From a bacterium (GTDB taxonomy: Bacteria; Patescibacteriota; CPR2; UBA1875; JAJYID01): a stretch of DNA of 64,000 nt. Of this stretch, positions 2,398 through 38,210 are shown piece after piece; the stretch's first letter is position 1, and every line of letters begins with the position of its first letter. The notes under the pieces are model-generated. The model saw only the letters and a list, made by a program, of their open reading frames with translations, had not been told where the DNA came from and did no database searches. Location: NCBI GenBank assembly GCA_021787535.1, contig JAJYLR010000001.1:492321-556320 (forward strand), read 5' to 3'. Position numbers and translations under genes: made by a program.

Positions 2398-2427
2398 TTG
2401 CCAAATCAAATATAAGTTCGTTATAAT
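2398..2427 (+). promoter_or_regulatory. putative promoter TTGCCA-N17/18-TATAAT
   Basis: read directly upstream of histidine kinase gene. Confidence 0.35.
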
Positions 2428-2455
2428 AACTTTAGTACTTATGTCTTAAATCCAA

Positions 2456-4159
2456 GTGAAGGAGGGTAATATAGAACTGGTAAGCTTGGGAGATTTAGAG
2501 GATCGGGATAAACTTGCTGATATAAGCAAATATTTTTTGTACTGCGTACTCGGACTAAATGTTATTGTTCTTCTAACTTTTTTAAGTTTAATTTTTTTGG
2601 CACGCAGCCAAGTTGGCGCAAATAATTTAGCAAAGATCACTCTAGGTATTGCCGTAACGGGAATCATCGTATTTTTCCCATCGCTGAAGGTGACTAAGAT
2701 GGAGCCAAAATATAATCTTTTGTTGCAATCATCTTTCATCTTGGCATATTTTGTAATTTTACTGGAGTTCACCGGCGGTACAGAGAGTTTATTTTATCCC
2801 CTAATTTTTCTTTTTATTATTTTGTCGGCTTTTTATTCACTGGTTGCCGGCATTTTAGTCGCAATCACTGCCTTTGCTTATTTTTTCTACCGCGAGCTAT
2901 ATTTAAATGGCCAAACATTAGCGCGCTTCTTTGTGCTAAATGGTTCCGGCCTTTTGACTCTTGCTTTAACTATAGTATTCTCTAGCTTGCTCGGCTTGAA
3001 ATATAGAAGAAGTACCTCAGAAAAATCAAGTCTTGAACAATATTCCAAAGATATCTCGGCTGATCAATCAAAAGATGAAGCAATTTTCGCTAATATCGGC
3101 GATGGCATATATGCAGTGAACACAAAAAGAGAGATGATACTTTTTAATCAAAGTGCAGAAAAGATCACTGGATGGAAATCAAAAGATACCCTTGGTCTTC
3201 CATGTAAAAAAATTATGAATTTAAAGGATGAGCAAAGCGTAAGCGTATGCGACAAGGACTGTCCGGCGCTTAGGGTTTGGAACACGGGAGAAAATATCAC
3301 GCGCGATGATCTCTGCTTTTTTGGAAATAGTAAAGAAGATTTAAGGATTGAGGGTACCTATGCTCCCATTAAGGATAAGGATGGAAAAGTCACCGGGGCA
3401 GTTTGTGTTTTTCGGGATGTGACTAAAAAGAAAGAAGTTGAGAGAATGCGCAGCGAATTTGTTTCAACAGCATCCCACGAGCTGCGTACGCCCATTACGG
3501 CAATATCCGGCTATATCGAACTGGTTTTGAATAATAAAGTCTGTACGGTTGACGACAAAGCAAAAGAATATTTAGGTAAAGCTTTTCAAACAGCCGCTTC
3601 AATGTCTAACTTAATTAAAAATCTGCTTGTCGTTACAAAAATCGAAGATAGAAAATTGCAATATAATGTCACTAATTTTTCTATGAAAGACTTGGTAGAA
3701 GAGGTAATAGAGGTTTTTCAAAATAAAGCTAGGGAGAAAAATATTGATCTCAAGTTTGAATCAAACCCGAACCTGACCGTAAAGGGTAAGGTGATTGATA
3801 GATCATTAAATGTCAAGGCCGACAAAGAACAAATCAGGGAAGTTTTGAATAACTTAATTGAAAATGCCATTAAATTTACTGCGAACGGAGGGGTGACAGT
3901 TTCGATCAGTTATGACAGCGACTTTGCAACCGTATGCGTTCGCGATAACGGAGTCGGCATACCTGAAACCGGGCAAAAGCATCTCTTTGAGAAGTTTTAC
4001 CAAGTTGATAATTCGGCCACAAGAGCAGTTGGCGGTACGGGTCTGGGACTCTATATCACAAGGGCAATTATAGAAGCGTTTGGCGGAAGAATATGGGTAA
4101 AAAGTATTGAAGGACAGGGCAGCAGTTTCTTCTTCACTGTACCCAGAGCACTTAGCTAA
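2456..4159 (+). CDS. sensor histidine kinase (multi-TM N-terminus, PAS, HisKA, HATPase_c)
   Basis: H-box STASHELRTPITAI; N/G boxes NLIENAIKFT...GTGLGLYI; several hydrophobic helices at N-terminus; GTG start as in ORF track. Confidence 0.85.
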   Translation: MKEGNIELVSLGDLEDRDKLADISKYFLYCVLGLNVIVLLTFLSLIFLARSQVGANNLAKITLGIAVTGIIVFFPSLKVTKMEPKYNLLLQSSFILAYFVILLEFTGGTESLFYPLIFLFIILSAFYSLVAGILVAITAFAYFFYRELYLNGQTLARFFVLNGSGLLTLALTIVFSSLLGLKYRRSTSEKSSLEQYSKDISADQSKDEAIFANIGDGIYAVNTKREMILFNQSAEKITGWKSKDTLGLPCKKIMNLKDEQSVSVCDKDCPALRVWNTGENITRDDLCFFGNSKEDLRIEGTYAPIKDKDGKVTGAVCVFRDVTKKKEVERMRSEFVSTASHELRTPITAISGYIELVLNNKVCTVDDKAKEYLGKAFQTAASMSNLIKNLLVVTKIEDRKLQYNVTNFSMKDLVEEVIEVFQNKAREKNIDLKFESNPNLTVKGKVIDRSLNVKADKEQIREVLNNLIENAIKFTANGGVTVSISYDSDFATVCVRDNGVGIPETGQKHLFEKFYQVDNSATRAVGGTGLGLYITRAIIEAFGGRIWVKSIEGQGSSFFFTVPRALS

Positions 4160-6946: not shown

Positions 6947-7446
6947 AATCACAAATCGAAAGCCTGCTGCTTGCCTCCGGGAAGCCTATTTCTTTAAAGG
7001 AAATGGCGCATATCATTGGACAAAGCATGGCCGATATTCAAAAAGAGATTAATTCTTTGACTCAAGAATATAGGGAACGGGGGCTTCGCATTATCAAACA
7101 AGGCGAGAGTTACTTCATGACAACAGCCGGAGAAAACGCGGAAACAGTCGCCAAATTTTTAAATGAGGAGTTGCGCTATGAACTGTCGCCGGCGGCGCTT
7201 GAAGTTCTGGCAATCATAGTTTACAGGCAGCCGATTACCAGATCGGAAATAGAGAATATTCGCGGTGCCGACTCGTCCAAACCACTCAGAACTTTGATGA
7301 TAAGAGGGTTGATTTGTGAAACCGGGCGAAAAGACGCTCCCGGCCGGCCAATTCTATATGGCACAACGGTGAAAATGATGACATATCTGGGAATAGAAGA
7401 CGAGGGACAACTGCCAAAGCTAGAAGAAGTATTACCAGCAACCTAA
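6928..7446 (+). CDS. scpB: segregation and condensation protein B
   Basis: SLLLASGKPISLKEMAHIIG ... tandem winged-helix ScpB pattern. Confidence 0.85.
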   Translation: MSKNNLKSQIESLLLASGKPISLKEMAHIIGQSMADIQKEINSLTQEYRERGLRIIKQGESYFMTTAGENAETVAKFLNEELRYELSPAALEVLAIIVYRQPITRSEIENIRGADSSKPLRTLMIRGLICETGRKDAPGRPILYGTTVKMMTYLGIEDEGQLPKLEEVLPAT

Positions 7447-7460
7447 TTGCCACCCGGATT

Positions 7461-7483
7461 GTCATTCTGGCTTGGCCAGAATC
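7461..7483. repeat. short palindromic repeat GTCATTCTGGCTTGGCCAGAATC (family A)
   Basis: inverted repeat ATTCTGGC/GCCAGAAT; family recurs >=12x in window. Confidence 0.7.
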
Positions 7484-7660
7484 AATATTTTCATTTGCCT
7501 TCACTTGTCTAAACCGAGGTAGGGAAGTGAATCTACCACACTTAATTATGAAGGGGTGAGGAATGCTTTGTTGCGTAATACTACACTAATATGTATTAGT
7601 GTAGTGGTGGCCTCTCTTTTTATCATTCCCGCACACACGAAGATCTATTATAATCAACTT

Positions 7661-8422
7661 ATGCGTATCAATAAGTACATTGCTTCTTGCACTAACTTAT
7701 CCCGCCGAAAGGCCGAGGTGCTGGTTTTGACGGGCAGAATAAAAATAGATTCTTCGCCTGTCATTCCCGTCCGCCGAGAGTCGGGTAAACATCCGGCGGG
7801 AATCCAGTCAACTGCTGAGACCGTAACAAATTTAGCCACTGAAGTTAGTCCTTCTGACAAGGTATATTTAGATGACAAATTGATTACTCCCCAAAGATTT
7901 GTTTACTATGCGCTTAATAAACCGGTTGGGTACACAACAACGACTTCCGACCCACATGCCGAGAAATTGATTACCAACCTCGTCCCAAATGATCCGCCCG
8001 TTTTTCCGATCGGCCGGCTTGACAAAGACACCTCCGGACTTATATTTCTCACAAATGACGGCGACTTCGCCCAGAAAATGACTCACCCAAAATACGAGAA
8101 AGAAAAAGAGTATATCTTCCAAACTGACCGAAAATTATCTGAGGAATCACTTGAAAAATTGCGAAAAGGAATTGAACTTGATGACGGCATAACCGCACCC
8201 GCAAAAGTTAAATCCCTTGCCAAGGGATGGACCCTTGGCAGTCATTCTGGCCCTGACCAGAATCTATATTCCATCACCATTCACGAAGGCCGAAACCGCC
8301 AAATCCGCCGAATGATTGATGCCGCCTGCGCAAAGGTGATCACTTTAAAGAGAATTAGAGTAGGGGATTTTGAACTAGGGGATTTAAAAGAAGGAAAATA
8401 TCAAATCTTCAAGCCAAAATGA
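7661..8422 (+). CDS. rluB: pseudouridine synthase, RsuA/RluB family with N-terminal S4 domain (carries two in-frame palindromic-repeat insertions)
   Basis: MRINKYIASCTNLSRRKAEVLV S4 motif; FPIGRLDKDTSGLIFLTNDG catalytic Asp motif; EGRNRQIRRM; start moved to MRINKY (ORF track extension upstream unsupported). Confidence 0.8.
   Translation: MRINKYIASCTNLSRRKAEVLVLTGRIKIDSSPVIPVRRESGKHPAGIQSTAETVTNLATEVSPSDKVYLDDKLITPQRFVYYALNKPVGYTTTTSDPHAEKLITNLVPNDPPVFPIGRLDKDTSGLIFLTNDGDFAQKMTHPKYEKEKEYIFQTDRKLSEESLEKLRKGIELDDGITAPAKVKSLAKGWTLGSHSGPDQNLYSITIHEGRNRQIRRMIDAACAKVITLKRIRVGDFELGDLKEGKYQIFKPK
7760..7805. repeat. palindromic repeat GTCATTCCCG...CGGGAATC (family B) inserted in-frame in rluB S4 domain
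   Basis: GTCATTCCCGTCCGCCGAGAGTCGGGTAAACATCCGGCGGGAATC; near-identical copy (rc) at 9212..9256. Confidence 0.7.
8241..8265. repeat. palindromic repeat GTCATTCTGGCCCTGACCAGAATC in-frame in rluB
   Basis: family A copy; translated as GSHSGPDQNL inside catalytic domain. Confidence 0.7.
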
Positions 8423-8424
8423 TC

Positions 8425-8447
8425 GTCATTCTGGCTTGACCAGAATC
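8425..8447. repeat. palindromic repeat GTCATTCTGGCTTGACCAGAATC (family A)
   Basis: 3 nt after rluB stop. Confidence 0.7.
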
Positions 8448-8476
8448 TTCTTTATTTTCTCGAAAATTTTGCTATA

Positions 8477-9091
8477 ATGATTTCACTTGGAGGGAATGTA
8501 CCTTCTTTTTTAAATCTGCAAACCAACAAGGAAGGGAGCACCATGTACATGTCATTTTTAGACTTTGCTTATATCGTTGCTATGATGATAGTTATAGGCG
8601 TATCCGTAGCCATCATCATTGCGACAGCAAAGGGCAGGGGCGCGAGTGAGTTCTATTACTTCCTGCTCGGTTTAATCTCCTTCATCGGCGTATCCGGCAT
8701 CATTTTTAGAGCGCTCAGTATGGGAGGGGTTCTCGAAGGGCTGAGCAAAGAATTTACCTGGACTTTCTATATTGCCTTTCCGGCAATATCGTCTCTCGTG
8801 CTCCTTGCCGTTGTCTGTGTCCATGACGATTACGTCGATCTACAGAATGATAAAAGGGCGCTCGAAGACATCCAGAACAGTCTCGGCCATTACAAGCATG
8901 GTGATAAAGACCATAACCTTTTTGTTGCAATCAGCAACCTGCAAGGGCACGTGGCGAATCAGGAAGGGGTTATTAAGTCACAGGACGAGGAACTAGCAAA
9001 ATTAAGGAAAGATAACGATCTGCTTAGGCAAGAAATGGCAGATCTGATCGACTCTATAACCACGCCAACTGTTGAAGAAGTGCTTTCATAA
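8477..9091 (+). CDS. hypothetical membrane protein with C-terminal coiled coil
   Basis: 2-3 hydrophobic helices then heptad-like EELAKLRKDNDLLRQEMADL; start uncertain (alt. Met at 8543). Confidence 0.4.
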   Translation: MISLGGNVPSFLNLQTNKEGSTMYMSFLDFAYIVAMMIVIGVSVAIIIATAKGRGASEFYYFLLGLISFIGVSGIIFRALSMGGVLEGLSKEFTWTFYIAFPAISSLVLLAVVCVHDDYVDLQNDKRALEDIQNSLGHYKHGDKDHNLFVAISNLQGHVANQEGVIKSQDEELAKLRKDNDLLRQEMADLIDSITTPTVEEVLS

Positions 9092-9113
9092 CATCTCTCT
9101 ATTCAACAAAACC

Positions 9114-9146
9114 GAGGCCCGACTCGTTCGGGTCTCTTTCTTTTTC
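9114..9146 (+). terminator. rho-independent terminator
   Basis: GAGGCCCGAC-TCGT-TCGGGTCTC hairpin then TTTCTTTTTC. Confidence 0.7.
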
Positions 9147-9156
9147 TCGTTCTGCC

Positions 9157-9188
9157 AGTGGTACACTAGACTAGTCTAGTGTACCACT
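9157..9188. promoter_or_regulatory. perfect 32-bp palindrome AGTGGTACACTAGACTAGTCTAGTGTACCACT (candidate operator/structured element)
   Basis: sequence equals its reverse complement over 32 nt. Confidence 0.4.
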
Positions 9189-9211
9189 TCGTGGGATTTA
9201 TCCGCCAAATA

Positions 9212-9256
9212 GATTCCCACCGGATGTTTACCCGACCTTTGGCGGGCGGGAATGAC
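9212..9256. repeat. palindromic repeat family B copy (reverse orientation) plus partial GTCATTCTGAGTC copy at 9264..9276
   Basis: rc reads GTCATTCCCGCCCGCCAAAGGTCGGGTAAACATCCGGTGGGAATC, ~90% identical to 7760..7805. Confidence 0.65.
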
Positions 9257-9271
9257 AAAGGTGGACTCAGA

Positions 9272-10219
9272 ATGACATTGTTTTATAATGGTATTATGAA
9301 AACTTTGATAATAGTGGTTTTAATATTTTTAGATATCATTCCTCATGGCGTTCCATTTGTCTCTGATATCCAGAAAAGTCTTGAAAATAATGTTAAGGTG
9401 GAGACACATCAAGTAGCAGACAACACTAATGAACCACTCAACTTTTCACCTCTGCCGTACCAAAACAATAAATATTACACCCTGACCGCAAGCGCCAAAG
9501 CCTACATGGTGGTTGACATGGGCACGGGGGAGATATTGTTACACCATGCAGAGGACAGTCCTCTGCAAATCGCCAGCCTGACGAAACTAATGACTGCGCG
9601 ACTGCTTTTGAAAGATGGCGACTTATCCAAAACCATTACTGTTAGGGCAAGTGATTTAAATAAGGTCCCGGCAGAAGAAGCCAGGATGTGGCTGGCCGCG
9701 GGCGACAAAGTGACGTACAACACCCTGCTCCACGGGCTTTTAATCAACTCCGGGGCCGATGCTGCTGTAACCATTGCCGACAATCTGTACCCGGGCGGGT
9801 ATAACGAATTTATTAGCAAAATGAACGAAGAAGCGGCAAATCTCAACTTGAAAAACACCCATTTCGATAACCCCGTCGGTTGGGATAGCGCAAGCAACTA
9901 TTCCACCGCCCAAGACCTGCAAATCCTGGCAAGAACATTGCTTCAAAATGATACTTTTAAGAAAATCGTCGGCACAAAGAGCGAAACGGTCTACTCTGAG
10001 AATGGCAGACCGTACAATCTGCAAAATACCAACGAACTTCTAAACGGCACTACGGTTTTTGGCATCAAAACCGGCTTTACAAACGGTGCCGGGCAGTGCC
10101 TCATCGCTGCCGGAAAAGTCAAGGGTCAGAATGTTTTAACGGTTGTTTTGGGTACGGGAGATAGGTTTGGCCAGACAAAAAACCTTCTCGAATGGACTGA
10201 TTTAGTGTATAATTGGTAG
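9272..10219 (+). CDS. D-alanyl-D-alanine carboxypeptidase paralog (peptidase S11)
   Basis: signal-like N-terminus MTLFYNGIMKTLIIVVLIF; SxxK (ASLTK), SGAD (SxN-like), KTGFT; ORF-track N-terminal extension rejected (runs through repeats/palindrome). Confidence 0.8.
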   Translation: MTLFYNGIMKTLIIVVLIFLDIIPHGVPFVSDIQKSLENNVKVETHQVADNTNEPLNFSPLPYQNNKYYTLTASAKAYMVVDMGTGEILLHHAEDSPLQIASLTKLMTARLLLKDGDLSKTITVRASDLNKVPAEEARMWLAAGDKVTYNTLLHGLLINSGADAAVTIADNLYPGGYNEFISKMNEEAANLNLKNTHFDNPVGWDSASNYSTAQDLQILARTLLQNDTFKKIVGTKSETVYSENGRPYNLQNTNELLNGTTVFGIKTGFTNGAGQCLIAAGKVKGQNVLTVVLGTGDRFGQTKNLLEWTDLVYNW

Positions 10220-10224
10220 TCATT

Positions 10225-10249
10225 GTCATTCCGGACTTGATCCGGAATC
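10225..10249. repeat. palindromic repeat GTCATTCCGGACTTGATCCGGAATC
   Basis: family member; tandem with next. Confidence 0.65.
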
Positions 10250-10265
10250 CAGGTTTATTAGTATA

Positions 10266-10290
10266 GATCCTGAATCAAGTTCAGGATGAC
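10266..10290. repeat. palindromic repeat GATCCTGAATCAAGTTCAGGATGAC (family, reverse orientation)
   Basis: rc GTCATCCTGAACTTGATTCAGGATC. Confidence 0.6.
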
Positions 10291-10299
10291 AGAAGAATC

Positions 10300-11727
10300 A
10301 TGTACAAAGTAGCACTGATCGGAAAACCAAACGCCGGGAAAAGCACTCTTTTTAACACTTTGCTTAAAAAGAGACAAGCTATTACCACAAATATACCCGG
10401 CACAACCCGCGACTGGAACGAAGAAGCCGCTTCTTTTGATGGCTCCCAATTTATTCTAGCCGATACGGCCGGCATAGAGCTAAAAGTTCCGAAAGGCGAC
10501 GAACTGAAAGAAAAGGCCTATAAGAAAATCCGGCAAAACTTAAGCACAGCTGATCTTTTTATTTTTGTGGCAGATAGAGAAACCGGTATCACAGAAGAAG
10601 ACCGAAAAATTATTAAAGAAGTCAGAAAATATGGCAAAGACATCTTGCTTGTCGTAAATAAAATTGACAGCCCGAGGAATAAGCCATCTTTGGCAGAGTT
10701 TCATAAACTGGGACTCGGCGAACCGCTTGGGGTCTCAGCCGAGCATAAAAGGGGAATCGAAAATCTTTTGAATGAGATACAGAAACGAATTCCTTCTCCT
10801 GTCATCCCGAGCGAAGCCGAGGAATCCCTTATTAATCGAGAGAGAAATGGATTTCTCCATTCGTCACTCCTTGATGTCAGTCGAAATAACAAAGAGATCA
10901 AGGTGTCTATTCTTGGCCGGCCAAATGCCGGGAAATCATCGTTTCTAAATAAACTGATTAATGAAGAAAAGTTCATCGTCAGCGATATACCGGGTACTAC
11001 GAGAGACGTGAATTCAACTTATCTCGATCATGAAGGCCAGGTAATTAAATTTCTAGATACAGCAGGTCTCAGGCGCCGGGGCAAGATAGGCAAAATGCCC
11101 GGTAAAGGCAAGGAGGGTCTCATAGAAAAGTTCTCCGCTGACCGTGTCAGAAAAACCTTGGAAGAGTCCGACATCGCGCTTTTAGTTCTAGATCCGACCG
11201 AACCGATAACTTCACAGGATCTGCACGTGGCGGGCTATATCAAAGATGCGTATAAGGGAATCATAGTAGTTGTAAATAAATGGGATCTGGCAAAGGAAGA
11301 AAAGCTGGCTCACGGATATGATACGGTTGAGAAGTTTTCTCGCCTCGCTCAGCATAAACTCGACTTCCTGCCGTATGCGCCTATCATTTTTGTTTCTTCG
11401 CTGACCGGTAAAAACGTTTCCAAAGTTTTGGATCTTATTCTGGAAATCAAAAAAAGACGAGAACAAAAGATTCCTACCAGCGATTTAAATAGTTTATTAA
11501 ATGAGTCAATGGCTAGAAAGAAGCCGCAAAGCGTAGATAAACATCAGGTCAATATAAAATACGCCACGCAAACAGGCGTAAACCCTCCAGAGTTTATATT
11601 CTTTGCAAACTATCCTCAAAAAGTGCATTTTTCATACCGCCGATTTCTGGAAAACCGCATTCGGGAAAAGTGGGGCTTCACCGGTACCCCGATAAGAATT
11701 ATTTTCAAATCAAAAAGTAAGCCATAA
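10300..11727 (+). CDS. der: ribosome-biogenesis GTPase Der (EngA), tandem GTPase domains + KH-like domain
   Basis: two P-loops GKPNAGKST and GRPNAGKSS, DTAG motifs, NKxD (NKID/NKWD). Confidence 0.9.
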   Translation: MYKVALIGKPNAGKSTLFNTLLKKRQAITTNIPGTTRDWNEEAASFDGSQFILADTAGIELKVPKGDELKEKAYKKIRQNLSTADLFIFVADRETGITEEDRKIIKEVRKYGKDILLVVNKIDSPRNKPSLAEFHKLGLGEPLGVSAEHKRGIENLLNEIQKRIPSPVIPSEAEESLINRERNGFLHSSLLDVSRNNKEIKVSILGRPNAGKSSFLNKLINEEKFIVSDIPGTTRDVNSTYLDHEGQVIKFLDTAGLRRRGKIGKMPGKGKEGLIEKFSADRVRKTLEESDIALLVLDPTEPITSQDLHVAGYIKDAYKGIIVVVNKWDLAKEEKLAHGYDTVEKFSRLAQHKLDFLPYAPIIFVSSLTGKNVSKVLDLILEIKKRREQKIPTSDLNSLLNESMARKKPQSVDKHQVNIKYATQTGVNPPEFIFFANYPQKVHFSYRRFLENRIREKWGFTGTPIRIIFKSKSKP

Positions 11728-11732
11728 AAGTC

Positions 11733-11760
11733 TTGACAATCTCTTCACTTAGTGTATAAT
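11733..11760 (+). promoter_or_regulatory. consensus sigma70 promoter TTGACA-N16-TATAAT
   Basis: read directly. Confidence 0.5.
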
Positions 11761-11836
11761 ATAATGTCTGGTGAGAAAAGTATGGAAGCTTAACTCACCG
11801 GGCACGTACCTGAAAATCACTACCCAAGGAGGGGTC

Positions 11837-12097
11837 ATGAGTAAAACTGAAAGGTTTTGGGCAATCCTCGGTGCGGTCGGTCGAGGACTTTGGTGGTGTT
11901 TCAGACACCCAAAAGAGACGGCCGCCTCGCTCATAATATCCTTTTTCCTTTTAACTCTTTTCGTTAGCATCTTCTCTGAAAATTTAGCTAACGAAATCTT
12001 CGGTCGGGTATTATACACGATCGGAGTCCCTGTGATTATTAGCATTGCGCTATATATGATCATTGCAGGGAAGAAACCGGGGAAAAAGAAGGATTGA
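11837..12097 (+). CDS. hypothetical small membrane protein (86 aa)
   Basis: ATG with perfect AAGGAGG SD 6 nt upstream; two hydrophobic helices; lysine-rich C-terminus. Confidence 0.45.
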   Translation: MSKTERFWAILGAVGRGLWWCFRHPKETAASLIISFFLLTLFVSIFSENLANEIFGRVLYTIGVPVIISIALYMIIAGKKPGKKKD

Positions 12098-12191
12098 TGA
12101 ACCCAAAAACCAACCACAATCATGGACGGCAGAGATTTTATTGGTATCTTATACCTCTAATTCTCTCGCCGTCCTTTCTTTTGAAAAAGTA

Positions 12192-12220
12192 TTGACAAAT
12201 ATTTTTTATGATGTATAATG
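12192..12220 (+). promoter_or_regulatory. consensus sigma70 promoter TTGACA-N17-TATAAT
   Basis: read directly; drives GC-rich non-coding region. Confidence 0.55.
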
Positions 12221-12226
12221 GTAATC

Positions 12227-12587
12227 ATTGTTTGGTGTTTTACTGAGCCCATTGTCACGAAAAGAGAATCCCGAATTTCAAAAAAAGAACGTGAGTTTGA
12301 TAAGATGCCAAACATGACCTTTACACTTTCTCCTCAGTTCTCGGCGCCTCGCCGCCGCTTTGCGTTTATGCGTTCAGGGGGCGCAGGATGAAAAAAATAA
12401 GTCGAGAAGGAGAGGAGAAAGAAGCAGCGATTTTTCCGCGGAGAATCGCTGCGAGCAGTGGGAATTTTGGCAACATGAAGTCGACCGCCAATCTCACTGC
12501 ACCTCGCAAGGGATAGTTTATTTATCTGCACATGGCGGATAAATTGTTCTTGCGGGGCGAAAGGGGCGCATATGCGCCCCTTTTTTT
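12227..12587 (+). ncRNA. candidate structured non-coding RNA (~360 nt), unidentified class
   Basis: bounded by consensus promoter and strong terminator; locally GC-rich (>55%) in AT-rich genome; multiple complementary segments (CTTTCTCCTC/GAGGAGAAAG; GCAGCGATT/AATCGCTGC 9-bp stem); no convincing ORF. Confidence 0.35.
12563..12587 (+). terminator. rho-independent terminator
   Basis: 18-bp perfect palindrome GGGGCGCATATGCGCCCC followed by TTTTTTT. Confidence 0.8.
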
Positions 12588-12588
12588 A

Positions 12589-12617
12589 TTTACTTGGATT
12601 AGCCAAAACGATAAAAT
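12589..12617 (+). promoter_or_regulatory. putative promoter TTTACT-N17-TAAAAT, leaderless (ATG 7 nt downstream)
   Basis: read directly. Confidence 0.35.
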
Positions 12618-12624
12618 ATTAATT

Positions 12625-13245
12625 ATGAAAGTAAAAACGCTTATAGTAGGATTAGGAAATCCGGGTGAAAAATACGAAAAAACCCGACATAATGCAGGAT
12701 TTATGGTGCTGGACGTGCTCTGCAATAATTTTAAATTTGAAAAAAAATTTAATGCGGAAGTTTGCCGGCTCTCCTCCTGTCATTCCCGCGAAGACGGGAA
12801 TCTAGATTCTGAACAAGCCAGAATGACAAATGAAGGAGATATTATTTTGATGAAACCCCAAACCTTCATGAATTTATCAGGCGAGGCAGTCCAATCTTTT
12901 GCCGGTTATTACAAGATTCAACCAGGAAATATTTGGATAATCCACGATGATATAGATATTCCGTTTGGAGAAATTAGAGTGAAAAAAGGCGGTTCTTCGG
13001 CCGGACATAAAGGAGTTCAGTCGATAATTGAAAAAATGGGCACAGAAGATTTTTGGAGGTTTCGAGTTGGCGTTAAAAATAATGATTTAGCAAGAATAGA
13101 AACTGAGGATTTTGTACTGCAAAGATTTAACCCTGATGAAGCAGGAGTTTTGGATAAAATAATAAATTTAGCTGCAGATGAAATAAAACTGTTTTTAAAG
13201 GAGGGAACACTTGAGGCAAAAACTCTAAAATTGAATAAAAAATAA
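12625..13245 (+). CDS. pth: peptidyl-tRNA hydrolase (with in-frame palindromic-repeat insertion)
   Basis: MKVKTLIVGLGNPGEKYEKTRHNAGF ... KPQTFMNLSGEAV Pth signature; ~20-aa insert CRLSSCHSREDGNLDSEQARMT encoded by repeat 12779..12827. Confidence 0.85.
   Translation: MKVKTLIVGLGNPGEKYEKTRHNAGFMVLDVLCNNFKFEKKFNAEVCRLSSCHSREDGNLDSEQARMTNEGDIILMKPQTFMNLSGEAVQSFAGYYKIQPGNIWIIHDDIDIPFGEIRVKKGGSSAGHKGVQSIIEKMGTEDFWRFRVGVKNNDLARIETEDFVLQRFNPDEAGVLDKIINLAADEIKLFLKEGTLEAKTLKLNKK
12779..12827. repeat. compound palindromic repeat GTCATTCCCGCGAAGACGGGAATC + TAGATTCTGAACAAGCCAGAATGAC inside pth
   Basis: two family members fused; in frame. Confidence 0.7.
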
Positions 13246-37949: not shown

Positions 37950-38210
37950 TTATCGCCATTCCCTAGATATTAGCTTCAATTTTTTTTCATGTGACCACTT
38001 CTTAGCCTGTATTTCCCTTTGTCTAGCCTCTGATTTACTGCCAAAAGGTTGCGACACATAAACTAGCTCAAATGGTCCTTGGTCTACTGCAAATTTAGCG
38101 CCATTACCAGAGTTGTGCTTTTTAATTCTCTCCACCAGATCAGTAGTCATGCCCACATATAACCTATTTGTCCTCGCTTTAGCTAAATAAATATACCATG
38201 GTTTCATCAC
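37950..38210 (-). CDS. GIY-YIG nuclease family small protein
   Basis: WYIYLAKARTNRLYVGMTTDLVERIKKHNSG GIY-YIG motif. Confidence 0.7.
   Translation of the reverse strand: MMKPWYIYLAKARTNRLYVGMTTDLVERIKKHNSGNGAKFAVDQGPFELVYVSQPFGSKSEARQREIQAKKWSHEKKLKLISREWR

Follow-up and report, generated by a model that had tools for sequence, protein, structure and literature searches.

The pseudouridine synthase locus

We analyzed a 64,000-nt stretch of DNA (the window; contig JAJYLR010000001.1, positions 492,321 to 556,320, assembly GCA_021787535.1, Patescibacteriota). It contains a gene for an rRNA pseudouridine synthase of the RsuA/RluB/RluF family, with copies of a short palindromic repeat inside the gene and on both sides of it. 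The features at the gene are listed below. Labels such as L001 denote other loci compared with the window.

7461..7483, + strand: intergenic repeat copy of the TCTGG subtype, GTCATTCTGGCTTGGCCAGAATC, 15 nt past the ScpB stop; terminator-like hairpin with a T-rich tail
7617..7640, + strand: decayed fifth repeat copy, ATCATTCCCGCACACACGAAGATC, aligned to an intact canonical copy in L001 (403-426)
7661..8422, + strand: RsuA/RluB/RluF-family rRNA pseudouridine synthase gene, 253 aa
7751..7816, + strand: insertion A, about 63 nt (+21 aa), SSPVIPVRRESGKHPAGIQSTA, in the S4 beta-hairpin; absent from orthologs of 219-224 aa
7760..7804, + strand: 45-nt long-variant repeat with outer stem ATTCCCG/CGGGAAT, an inner hairpin, and the conserved segment GTAAACATCC
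7777..7905, + strand: recombination or gene-conversion tract, 128 of 129 nt identical to L001 (remaining coding sequence 75% identical)
8218..8240, + strand: second palindrome, 23 nt, TGCCAAGGG-ATGGA-CCCTTGGCA, encoding AKGWTLG; part of insertion C, abutting the 8241 copy
8219-8240 plus 8241-8264, + strand: insertion C (+12 aa), in the loop before ITIHEGRNRQIRRM
8241..8264, + strand: 24-nt repeat copy of the TCTGG subtype, GTCATTCTGGCCCTGACCAGAATC, read in frame as SHSGPDQN
8425..8447, + strand: intergenic repeat copy, terminator-like, 3 nt past the synthase stop

An earlier note on this DNA placed four repeat copies at 7461, 7760, 8241, and 8425, and all four are present there. As it had stated, the open reading frame (ORF) contains two of them, those at 7760 and 8241, which are read in frame as VIPVRRESGKHPAGI and SHSGPDQNL, and the last copy starts at 8425, 3 nt past the stop codon. 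The decayed copy at 7617 and the palindrome at 8218-8240 had gone unnoticed.

The sole long ORF of the region extends from 7556 or 7661 to the stop codon at 8420-8422 on the + strand. We set the start at the ATG at 7661 because the orthologs begin at MRINKY. The product matches PF00849 (PseudoU_synth_2) with E = 3e-25 and passes the TIGR00093 subfamily model (148 bits, cut-off 109), but not the RluB equivalog model NF007976 (90 bits, cut-off 290). The RluF and RsuA models give 114 and 106 bits, both below their cut-offs. The name rluB in the earlier note is thus right for the family and not for the RluB equivalog.

A search of the PDB with the protein returns RluF, RluB, and RsuA, and the predicted model of the synthase matches the structures of the same three enzymes. 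The GRLD motif with the catalytic aspartate (G118-R119-L120-D121) and the HEGRNRQ(I/V)RR motif are invariant across the aligned orthologs. The window protein has the features that define the RsuA family, a PseudoU_synth_2 domain with the GRLD aspartate and an N-terminal S4 domain. Pfam detects S4 in the insert-free orthologs but not in the window protein, because insertion A splits the S4 fold, which is present in the model. The core of the synthase has a dN/dS of 0.05-0.15 against nine orthologs (dS is computable for eight and saturated for one) and is under purifying selection. The invariant catalytic motifs and the low core dN/dS argue that the insert-bearing gene is functional.

A protein search finds orthologs at 57-72% identity in uncultivated bacteria, which carry the annotation candidate division WS5 or Patescibacteria group. 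Ten orthologs were compared together with their DNA, in assemblies from ENA, JGI, NCBI, and Logan. The gene order common to the orthologous loci is ScpA-ScpB-synthase-(small ORF)-S11 peptidase-Der.

Two in-frame insertions in the synthase

We measured the insertions against syntenic orthologs of 219-224 aa, which lack both segments and in which Pfam S4 is detectable. In the homolog alignment, the check that the earlier note had proposed, the inserted segments do not align to conserved RluB/RsuA sequence. In insertion A, the 45-nt palindrome is preceded by a CT-rich 5' flank and followed by a CAG tail. Insertion C consists of AKGWTLG plus SHSGPDQ, which replace two baseline residues. The load on the protein is therefore 33 residues (21 + 12), rather than the roughly 25 estimated before.

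Insertion C had been described as a repeat copy. This holds for the 8241 copy, but the insertion is compound, as it also contains the palindrome at 8218-8240, which is not dispersed and is present only at the orthologous coding site. The repeat copies at this site insert immediately 3' of the palindrome. A palindrome of the form GCCAAGGG-N5-CCCTTGGC occupies the orthologous position in L004 (553-573), L005 (3523-3543), and L006 (3586-3606), an otherwise insert-free ortholog being among the carriers. Its stem in L006 has a compensatory change, GCCAAGGTT...AACCTTGGC.

In the AlphaFold model the core is confident, residues 34-49 have pLDDT values below 50, and residues 191-200 have a mean pLDDT of 56. 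In the PDB alignment the second insert is a pure gap against E. coli RluF. Both inserts are predicted to be floppy surface loops, and the 33 extra residues are probably disordered.

A dispersed family of hairpin repeats

The copies share the core GTCATTC ... GAATC, with an inner stem that is variable yet complementary (CCCG/CGGG, CTGG/CCAG, CCGG/CCGG, CTGA/TCAG). The complete unit has a pyrimidine-rich 5' flank, a (T/C)GTC tag, an ATTCNNN(N) stem arm, a loop, an (N)NNNGAAT stem arm, and a C-YA(G/T) tail. Across 75 copies GTC is invariant and the position before it is T in 72% and C in 21%; the 11 nt 5' of the copies are 72-93% C+T; and GAAT is followed by C, then C or T, then A (89%), then G or T. 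The four copies at 7461, 7760, 8241, and 8425 (the focal copies) have the tags TGTC, TGTC, AGTC, and CGTC and the tails CAA, CCA, CTA, and CTT. The stems (ATTC.../...GAAT) are 7-8 bp with loops of 3-6 nt, and long variants have 21-32 nt between the outer arms. Stem cells are paired in 94.6% of cases and 38 are changed on both sides, values neither of which is reached in 500 shuffles, in a test that is partly circular, the copies having been chosen for pairing.

All four focal copies fold as single-strand hairpins better than shuffled sequences do (z -3.6 to -4.8). The 7461 copy has a DNA folding energy of -7.7 kcal/mol (z -4.3) and a terminator-like match at 7464-7482; with its flank it is identical over 44 of 44 nt in L001 and L007. 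The 8425 copy (z -3.55) has a terminator-like match at 8428-8446, followed by CTTCTTTATT. These two intergenic copies, near stop codons and with T-rich tails, may be weak terminators. The 7760 copy (-11.9 kcal/mol, z -3.6) is 3-4 substitutions off the consensus of its subfamily as seen in other genes; it is old and partly decayed. The 64 kb contain three matches to GTCATTCTGG-N(1-12)-CCAGAAT, each of them beside the synthase gene, and 100 dinucleotide shuffles contain none.

The 7617 copy no longer folds (folding energy 0). It lies directly 5' of TATTATAAT and the ATG. The same arrangement, a repeat copy immediately 5' of TATTATAAT or CAGTATAAT, is seen at 7613-7660 of the window, L001 395-445, and L002 2955-3000, and in several orthologs the distance from TATTATAAT or CAGTATAAT to the ATG is 7-8 nt. 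The layout hints at a promoter overlapping the repeat and at a leader that is very short or absent.

About 11-13 copies of the family are present in the window, where none are expected. About 75 copies are found in 206 kb (the window plus related loci), and about a third of them are intragenic. Lengths that are multiples of three (3n) characterize 25 of 26 intragenic copies and 13 of 46 copies outside genes (Fisher p = 1e-8), counts that include orthologous copies and are not fully independent. In-frame copies are found in the genes of the pseudouridine synthase, der, pth, scpA, ligA, tsaB, an rmlD-like gene, and a miaB-like gene.

With one genome per species searched, the core of the 45-nt variant is found only in four related metagenome-assembled genomes (MAGs), in 13 copies. 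Most of these are located within long ORFs and share one orientation and frame, in which they read (S/P)VIPARQRSGKHPAGIQ; seven of the eight gene sites read VIPARQRSGKHPAGIQ. The hosts are LigA, TsaB, an RmlD-like protein, a MiaB-like protein (twice), and the synthase, and one antisense copy lies in a FemAB-like gene. A literature search on the encoded peptides (IPAKAGIQ, CHSREGGNP, and others) finds no matching papers, and an Rfam scan of 7000-13000 returns nothing relevant.

Judged by their sequences, the repeats belong to the CGTC/TGTC-tagged superfamily of repetitive extragenic palindromic (REP) elements, which comprises Neisseria dRS3/NTS, the Ssn-related motifs (SRM), and Rickettsia RPE-4/-6. 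The superfamily was described by Di Nocera, De Gregorio, and Rocco in 2013; its CGTC-1 type is Neisseria dRS3 (PMC3733652).

Turnover of repeats among the orthologs

Repeat copies occupy three sites in the orthologous genes, and the same or similar inserts recur in independent assemblies. Site A, in the S4 hairpin, holds the 45-nt variant in the window, L001, and L005, a 24-nt copy in L002, and a truncated plus an intact copy in L006. Site B, after KVYL, holds the 45-nt variant in L007 and a 24-nt copy in L008. Site C, before ITIHEGRNRQ, holds the TCTGG type in the window and L008; in L001, L003, L005, and L007 it holds the canonical CCCGCG type, which is read CHSREGGNP, sometimes with additional sequence. 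The length of the protein from MRINKY ranges from 219 aa (L009) to 281 aa (L005), and at sites A/B and C the window, L001, and L007 are completely different from one another.

These patterns show repeated gain, replacement, and decay of family members at the three sites. The description of the gene as a hotspot in the earlier note is borne out, since different family members occupy three sites across the orthologs, although the gene is not unique in this, as der and pth in the window also carry in-frame copies.

The 7777-7905 tract, for which the chance probability is about 6e-14, starts inside the site-A repeat, and the similarity between the window and L001 ends exactly at the end of the 7461 copy. 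Therefore, recombination at the repeats contributes to the turnover.

Candidate mobilizing enzymes

The small GIY-YIG nuclease SsnA binds Neisseria dRS3/NTS (CGTCATTCCCGCGMAVGCGGGAATCYRG) and the Ssn-related motifs when they are present as single-stranded DNA (ssDNA), and it cuts them a few nt 5' of the hairpin (PMC11893778). Nucleases of the Ssn type (cd10448) have a single domain and about 94 aa. In relatives, a gene for a 92-96 aa single-domain GIY-YIG protein lies between tsaE and tsaB, a locus outside the window, with family repeats on both sides. The gene is intact in L022 (1440-1725), where the stop codon lies inside the downstream repeat and the start is a GTG (the gene caller chose an internal ATG). 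It has an in-frame stop in L017 (7335-7610, - strand). A 5' fragment in L020 (4874-5060) is bracketed by inverted copies of the TCTGG type, the subtype of the focal copies. The same repeat-flanked architecture is present in L024, from an unrelated organism, and it equals the NTS-ssnA-NTS arrangement of the Ssn paper (PMC11893778). A PDB search for a solved Ssn structure returns UPF0213 proteins only.

The window has only one GIY-YIG gene of its own, a single-domain one at 37950-38210 (- strand; 85 aa; UPF0213/YhbQ-like; PDB 1zg2, E = 1e-13). It belongs to a cluster with four tRNA genes, where its neighbors are tRNA-Thr and tRNA-Tyr.

The related MAG L016 encodes a RAYT-like protein (2403-3077; PF01797, E = 5e-8; NF047646, 53 bits, below the NCBIfam cut-off). 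The gene is flanked on both sides by its own repeat of about 45 nt, with the palindrome CCACACACC-N-GGTGTGTGG. We rejected it as the mobilizer, since this palindrome is not of the repeat family described here. The L016 gene with its flanking repeat represents a second, independent REP-type system in the lineage.

Origin and persistence of the insertions

The likely explanation is that a dispersed family of REP elements forming ssDNA hairpins inserted twice, in frame, into the synthase gene and that the inserts are tolerated in loops. Two copies entered the RsuA-family gene and persist there because they preserve the frame, bring no stop codon into it, and fall within loops at the protein surface, one being the S4 beta-hairpin and the other the hairpin that precedes the HEGRNRQ strand. 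As a result, the protein carries the 33 extra residues and is still under purifying selection. Copies may spread or be exchanged through ssDNA hairpin intermediates acted on in trans, the likeliest enzyme being a small Ssn-type GIY-YIG nuclease such as that encoded between repeats in the relatives. Break repair or gene conversion from other copies would follow. Selection would retain only copies that are 3n long, stop-free, and located in loops, and the intragenic copies would be selfish or neutral.

Several points weigh against this explanation. No mobilizing enzyme is visible in the 64-kb window; its GIY-YIG gene at 37950-38210 was rejected as the cognate nuclease, being UPF0213-like with no repeats nearby. 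The GIY-YIG proteins of the relatives are candidate members of the Ssn type (cd10448). Neither the NTS 28-mer (at most one mismatch allowed) nor the SRM pattern HGTCWYN(0-2)YYVSBRHN(0-5)WNVSBRGN(0-2)RNCYNB matches any of the four focal copies, which have the CTGG stem; a shorter stem explains why the SRM pattern misses them. That the inserts are translated is deduced from the intact frame, and orthologous copies enter the copy counts. In addition, the orthologs, at 65-85% DNA identity, provide no definable target-site duplication or clean empty/filled pair; at site C, for example, L004 and the window differ by a net 18 nt, which is not the length of the element, and the flanks are too diverged. 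For this reason transposition proper is not demonstrated, and gene conversion alone could produce much of the pattern.

An alternative is that the pattern arose mainly through recombination or gene conversion between existing copies and genomes, the inserts being ancient fossils swapped at repeat junctions. It accounts for the identical tract that begins inside the site-A repeat, the break in window-L001 similarity at the 7461 copy, the presence of short, long, or double copies at one site across the orthologs, and the decay of the site-A copy from its consensus. However, the 45-nt subfamily is found in many unrelated genes with different flanks; therefore, de novo insertion is required at some time. 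As the main source of the pattern, recombination is possible but rather unlikely, and it complements insertion of mobile hairpins rather than excluding it.

We consider it unlikely that the hairpins are maintained by a role in the host, such as transcription termination, mRNA stabilization, or control of DNA uptake and recombination as for Neisseria NTS. Both intergenic copies do lie 3-15 nt past stops and are terminator-like with T-rich tails, three genomes share the 7461 copy and its flank at 100% identity, SsnA/NTS modulates transformation in Neisseria (PMC11893778), and REPs lie mostly downstream of ORFs (PMC3733652). On the other hand, the intragenic copies are decaying in sequence and in stem, the 7617 copy has lost its hairpin, the stems are weak (7-8 bp with 3-4 GC pairs), and the insert-free orthologs function without the repeats.

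Mobilization of the repeats as REPs or REPINs by a RAYT (an HUH Y1 tyrosine transposase), and not by a GIY-YIG nuclease, is improbable. The same core, ATTCCCGCGCAGGCGGGAATC, is regarded by Bertels and Rainey as the REP of a Neisseria REPIN-RAYT system, inverted doublets exist in the window (10225/10266 and 12779/12805), and L016 encodes its RAYT-like protein. Against this, tblastn with approximate sequences of IS200 TnpA and E. coli RAYT finds no Y1 transposase in the window or in L001-L009; the L016 gene, to which one weak tblastn match led, has a different flanking palindrome and a score below the cut-off; and Di Nocera et al. (PMC3733652) encountered no RAYT flanked by CGTC repeats in any species.

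A more far-reaching and quite improbable extension is that in this small-genome lineage the NTS-type hairpins are a coding-adapted mobile module, kept in essential genes because the cognate nuclease cuts ssDNA there and so shapes gene flow. The 3n length, the pyrimidine-rich leader, the one preferred frame, and the flexible basic peptide may reflect such adaptation. The nuclease might cut incoming or replicating ssDNA, and recombination between relatives might thereby be shaped; if so, the 129-nt tract that starts at the site-A copy would be a footprint of nuclease-shaped recombination.

The idea that the segments are native lineage-specific loops, assembly artifacts, or signs of a pseudogene has negligible probability: the loop before HEGRNRQ is length-variable in the RsuA family and E. 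coli RluB has a loop of similar length, but the ortholog alignment refutes the idea, as the segments are copies of a dispersed DNA repeat, insert-free orthologs exist, the same or similar inserts recur in assemblies from four sources, and the gene has an intact frame, invariant catalytic motifs, and a low dN/dS.

Other copies and palindromes in the window

The der ORF (10300..11727) contains a 93-nt repeat doublet at 10798-10890 with a CT-rich leader; its in-frame translation is SPVIPSEAEESLINRERNGFLHSSLLDVSRNN. This doublet recurs between genes in L002 (5129-5227) and, inverted, in L006. The pth ORF (12532..13245), identified by synteny with L007, contains an inverted doublet, 12779-12802 (+) and 12805-12827 (-), read in frame as CHSREDGNLDSEQARMT and located just before the conserved KPQTFMNLSG. 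In L007, a 45-nt copy lies at the position of this doublet.

The 80 nt that separate the stop codon of the S11 peptidase from the start of der are filled by a REPIN-like inverted doublet, 10225-10249 (+) and 10266-10290 (-), and a similar doublet is found in L003 and L008. A second 45-nt long-variant copy at 9212-9256 (-) and a partial copy at 9257-9275 lie 5' of the S11 peptidase start. The likely true start of the peptidase is the ATG at 9296 (MKTLIIVV); an ORF from the GTG at 9179 would translate the repeats as ...RMFTRPLAGGNDKGGLRMT, and an N-terminus annotated from that GTG is probably wrong.

More in-frame copies lie in neighboring genes of the orthologous loci, at L007 1687-1734, L002 4294-4317, and L006 4664-4687. 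ScpA of L007 is 253 aa, compared with 229 aa elsewhere. In the S11 peptidase of orthologous loci, antisense copies read DSGQSQND.

Two further perfect palindromes are present: ACTACACTAATA-TG-TATTAGTGTAGT at 7580-7605, just 5' of the synthase gene and conserved in L007 and L003, and the 32-nt AGTGGTACACTAGACTAGTCTAGTGTACCACT at 9157-9188, just 5' of the peptidase gene. These palindromes bear no relation to the repeat family and may serve as operators or other regulatory sites.

Comparison with known systems

The phenomenon is known from Neisseria dRS3/NTS and from the Rickettsia palindromic elements (RPEs), and the locus adds useful detail rather than a new principle. Among top-ranked literature results, we found no report of REP, REPIN, or RAYT in Patescibacteria or the candidate phyla radiation. 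The locus extends the CGTC/NTS superfamily, and the in-frame colonization of housekeeping genes, to a lineage annotated as WS5 or Patescibacteria group that is absent from the surveys consulted. It offers a compact natural experiment in which, among relatives, one 220-aa enzyme carries 0 to about 60 inserted residues at three sites, which shows loops of the S4 and catalytic domains that tolerate insertion. It is also a warning for annotation, since such inserts break the detection of Pfam S4, extend ORFs upstream, and supply stop codons.

The repeats resemble CGTC REPs in the unpaired (C/T)GTC tag, the stem with A-T and T-A as first pairs (ATTC...GAAT), and the short loop. The tail, C-YA(G/T) here, may correspond to the short unpaired tail of the superfamily, which has the consensus CCA. 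The superfamily stem is 8-9 bp with a loop of about 4-5 nt, and its members are dispersed in multiple copies, as here. Heterogeneous stem subtypes, occasional inverted dimers, copies just downstream of ORFs, and intragenic in-frame copies are also shared; among CGTC REPs, the last are known in pseudouridine synthase genes, too (PMC3733652). The differences are that CGTC REPs were reported in Proteobacteria, Chlorobi, Bacteroidetes, Spirochaetes, and Thermotogae, not in Patescibacteria/WS5 (PMC3733652), whereas the present family has stems of 7-8 bp, about a third of its copies in genes, a pyrimidine-rich 5' flank, and lineage-specific variants of 45-56 nt that contain an inner hairpin as well as a conserved TAAAC(A/T)(T)CC segment. 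CGTC REPs have long been said to have "no dedicated transposase" (PMC3733652). The repeat-flanked GIY-YIG gene between tsaE and tsaB encodes a candidate partner enzyme and bears on how CGTC repeats propagate.

The likeness to NTS is closest for the canonical copies of the orthologs, TGTCATTCCCGCG(A/C)AGGCGGGAATCCAG, which equal the 28-nt NTS except for the first base. The SRM pattern is matched by a single copy of the window, at 12778-12805, and by copies at the same gene sites in L001, L003, L005, L006, and L008. As in the NTS/SsnA system, copies cluster around particular genes, and the GIY-YIG gene of the relatives has repeats on both sides. The window differs in that no Ssn-type gene is seen in it, and intragenic copies are not discussed in PMC11893778.

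With REPIN-RAYT systems the family shares short hairpin repeats, inverted doublets, long vertical persistence, and the core sequence found in Neisseria. In contrast, REPINs are essentially extragenic, and no RAYT flanked by family repeats, as the single-copy RAYT of such a system is by its own REP, was found. The four focal copies are singletons and not the inverted doublets that make up a REPIN; doublets occur elsewhere in the window (10225/10266, 12779/12805, and 10798-10890).

The behavior of the copies in genes resembles that of RPEs (Ogata et al. 2000, as described in PMC10969869 and PMC3733652), of which R. conorii RPE-4 and RPE-6 are themselves CGTC REPs (PMC3733652). In both cases many unrelated housekeeping genes carry in-frame palindromic selfish DNA that keeps to one reading frame, yields a conserved peptide, and is tolerated in surface regions. 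As these sources describe it, RPE-1 is about 100-150 bp and restricted to Rickettsia, whereas the repeats here are 23-56 nt and belong to a free-living or episymbiotic lineage with small genomes. In addition, several subtypes here compete for the same sites in one gene.

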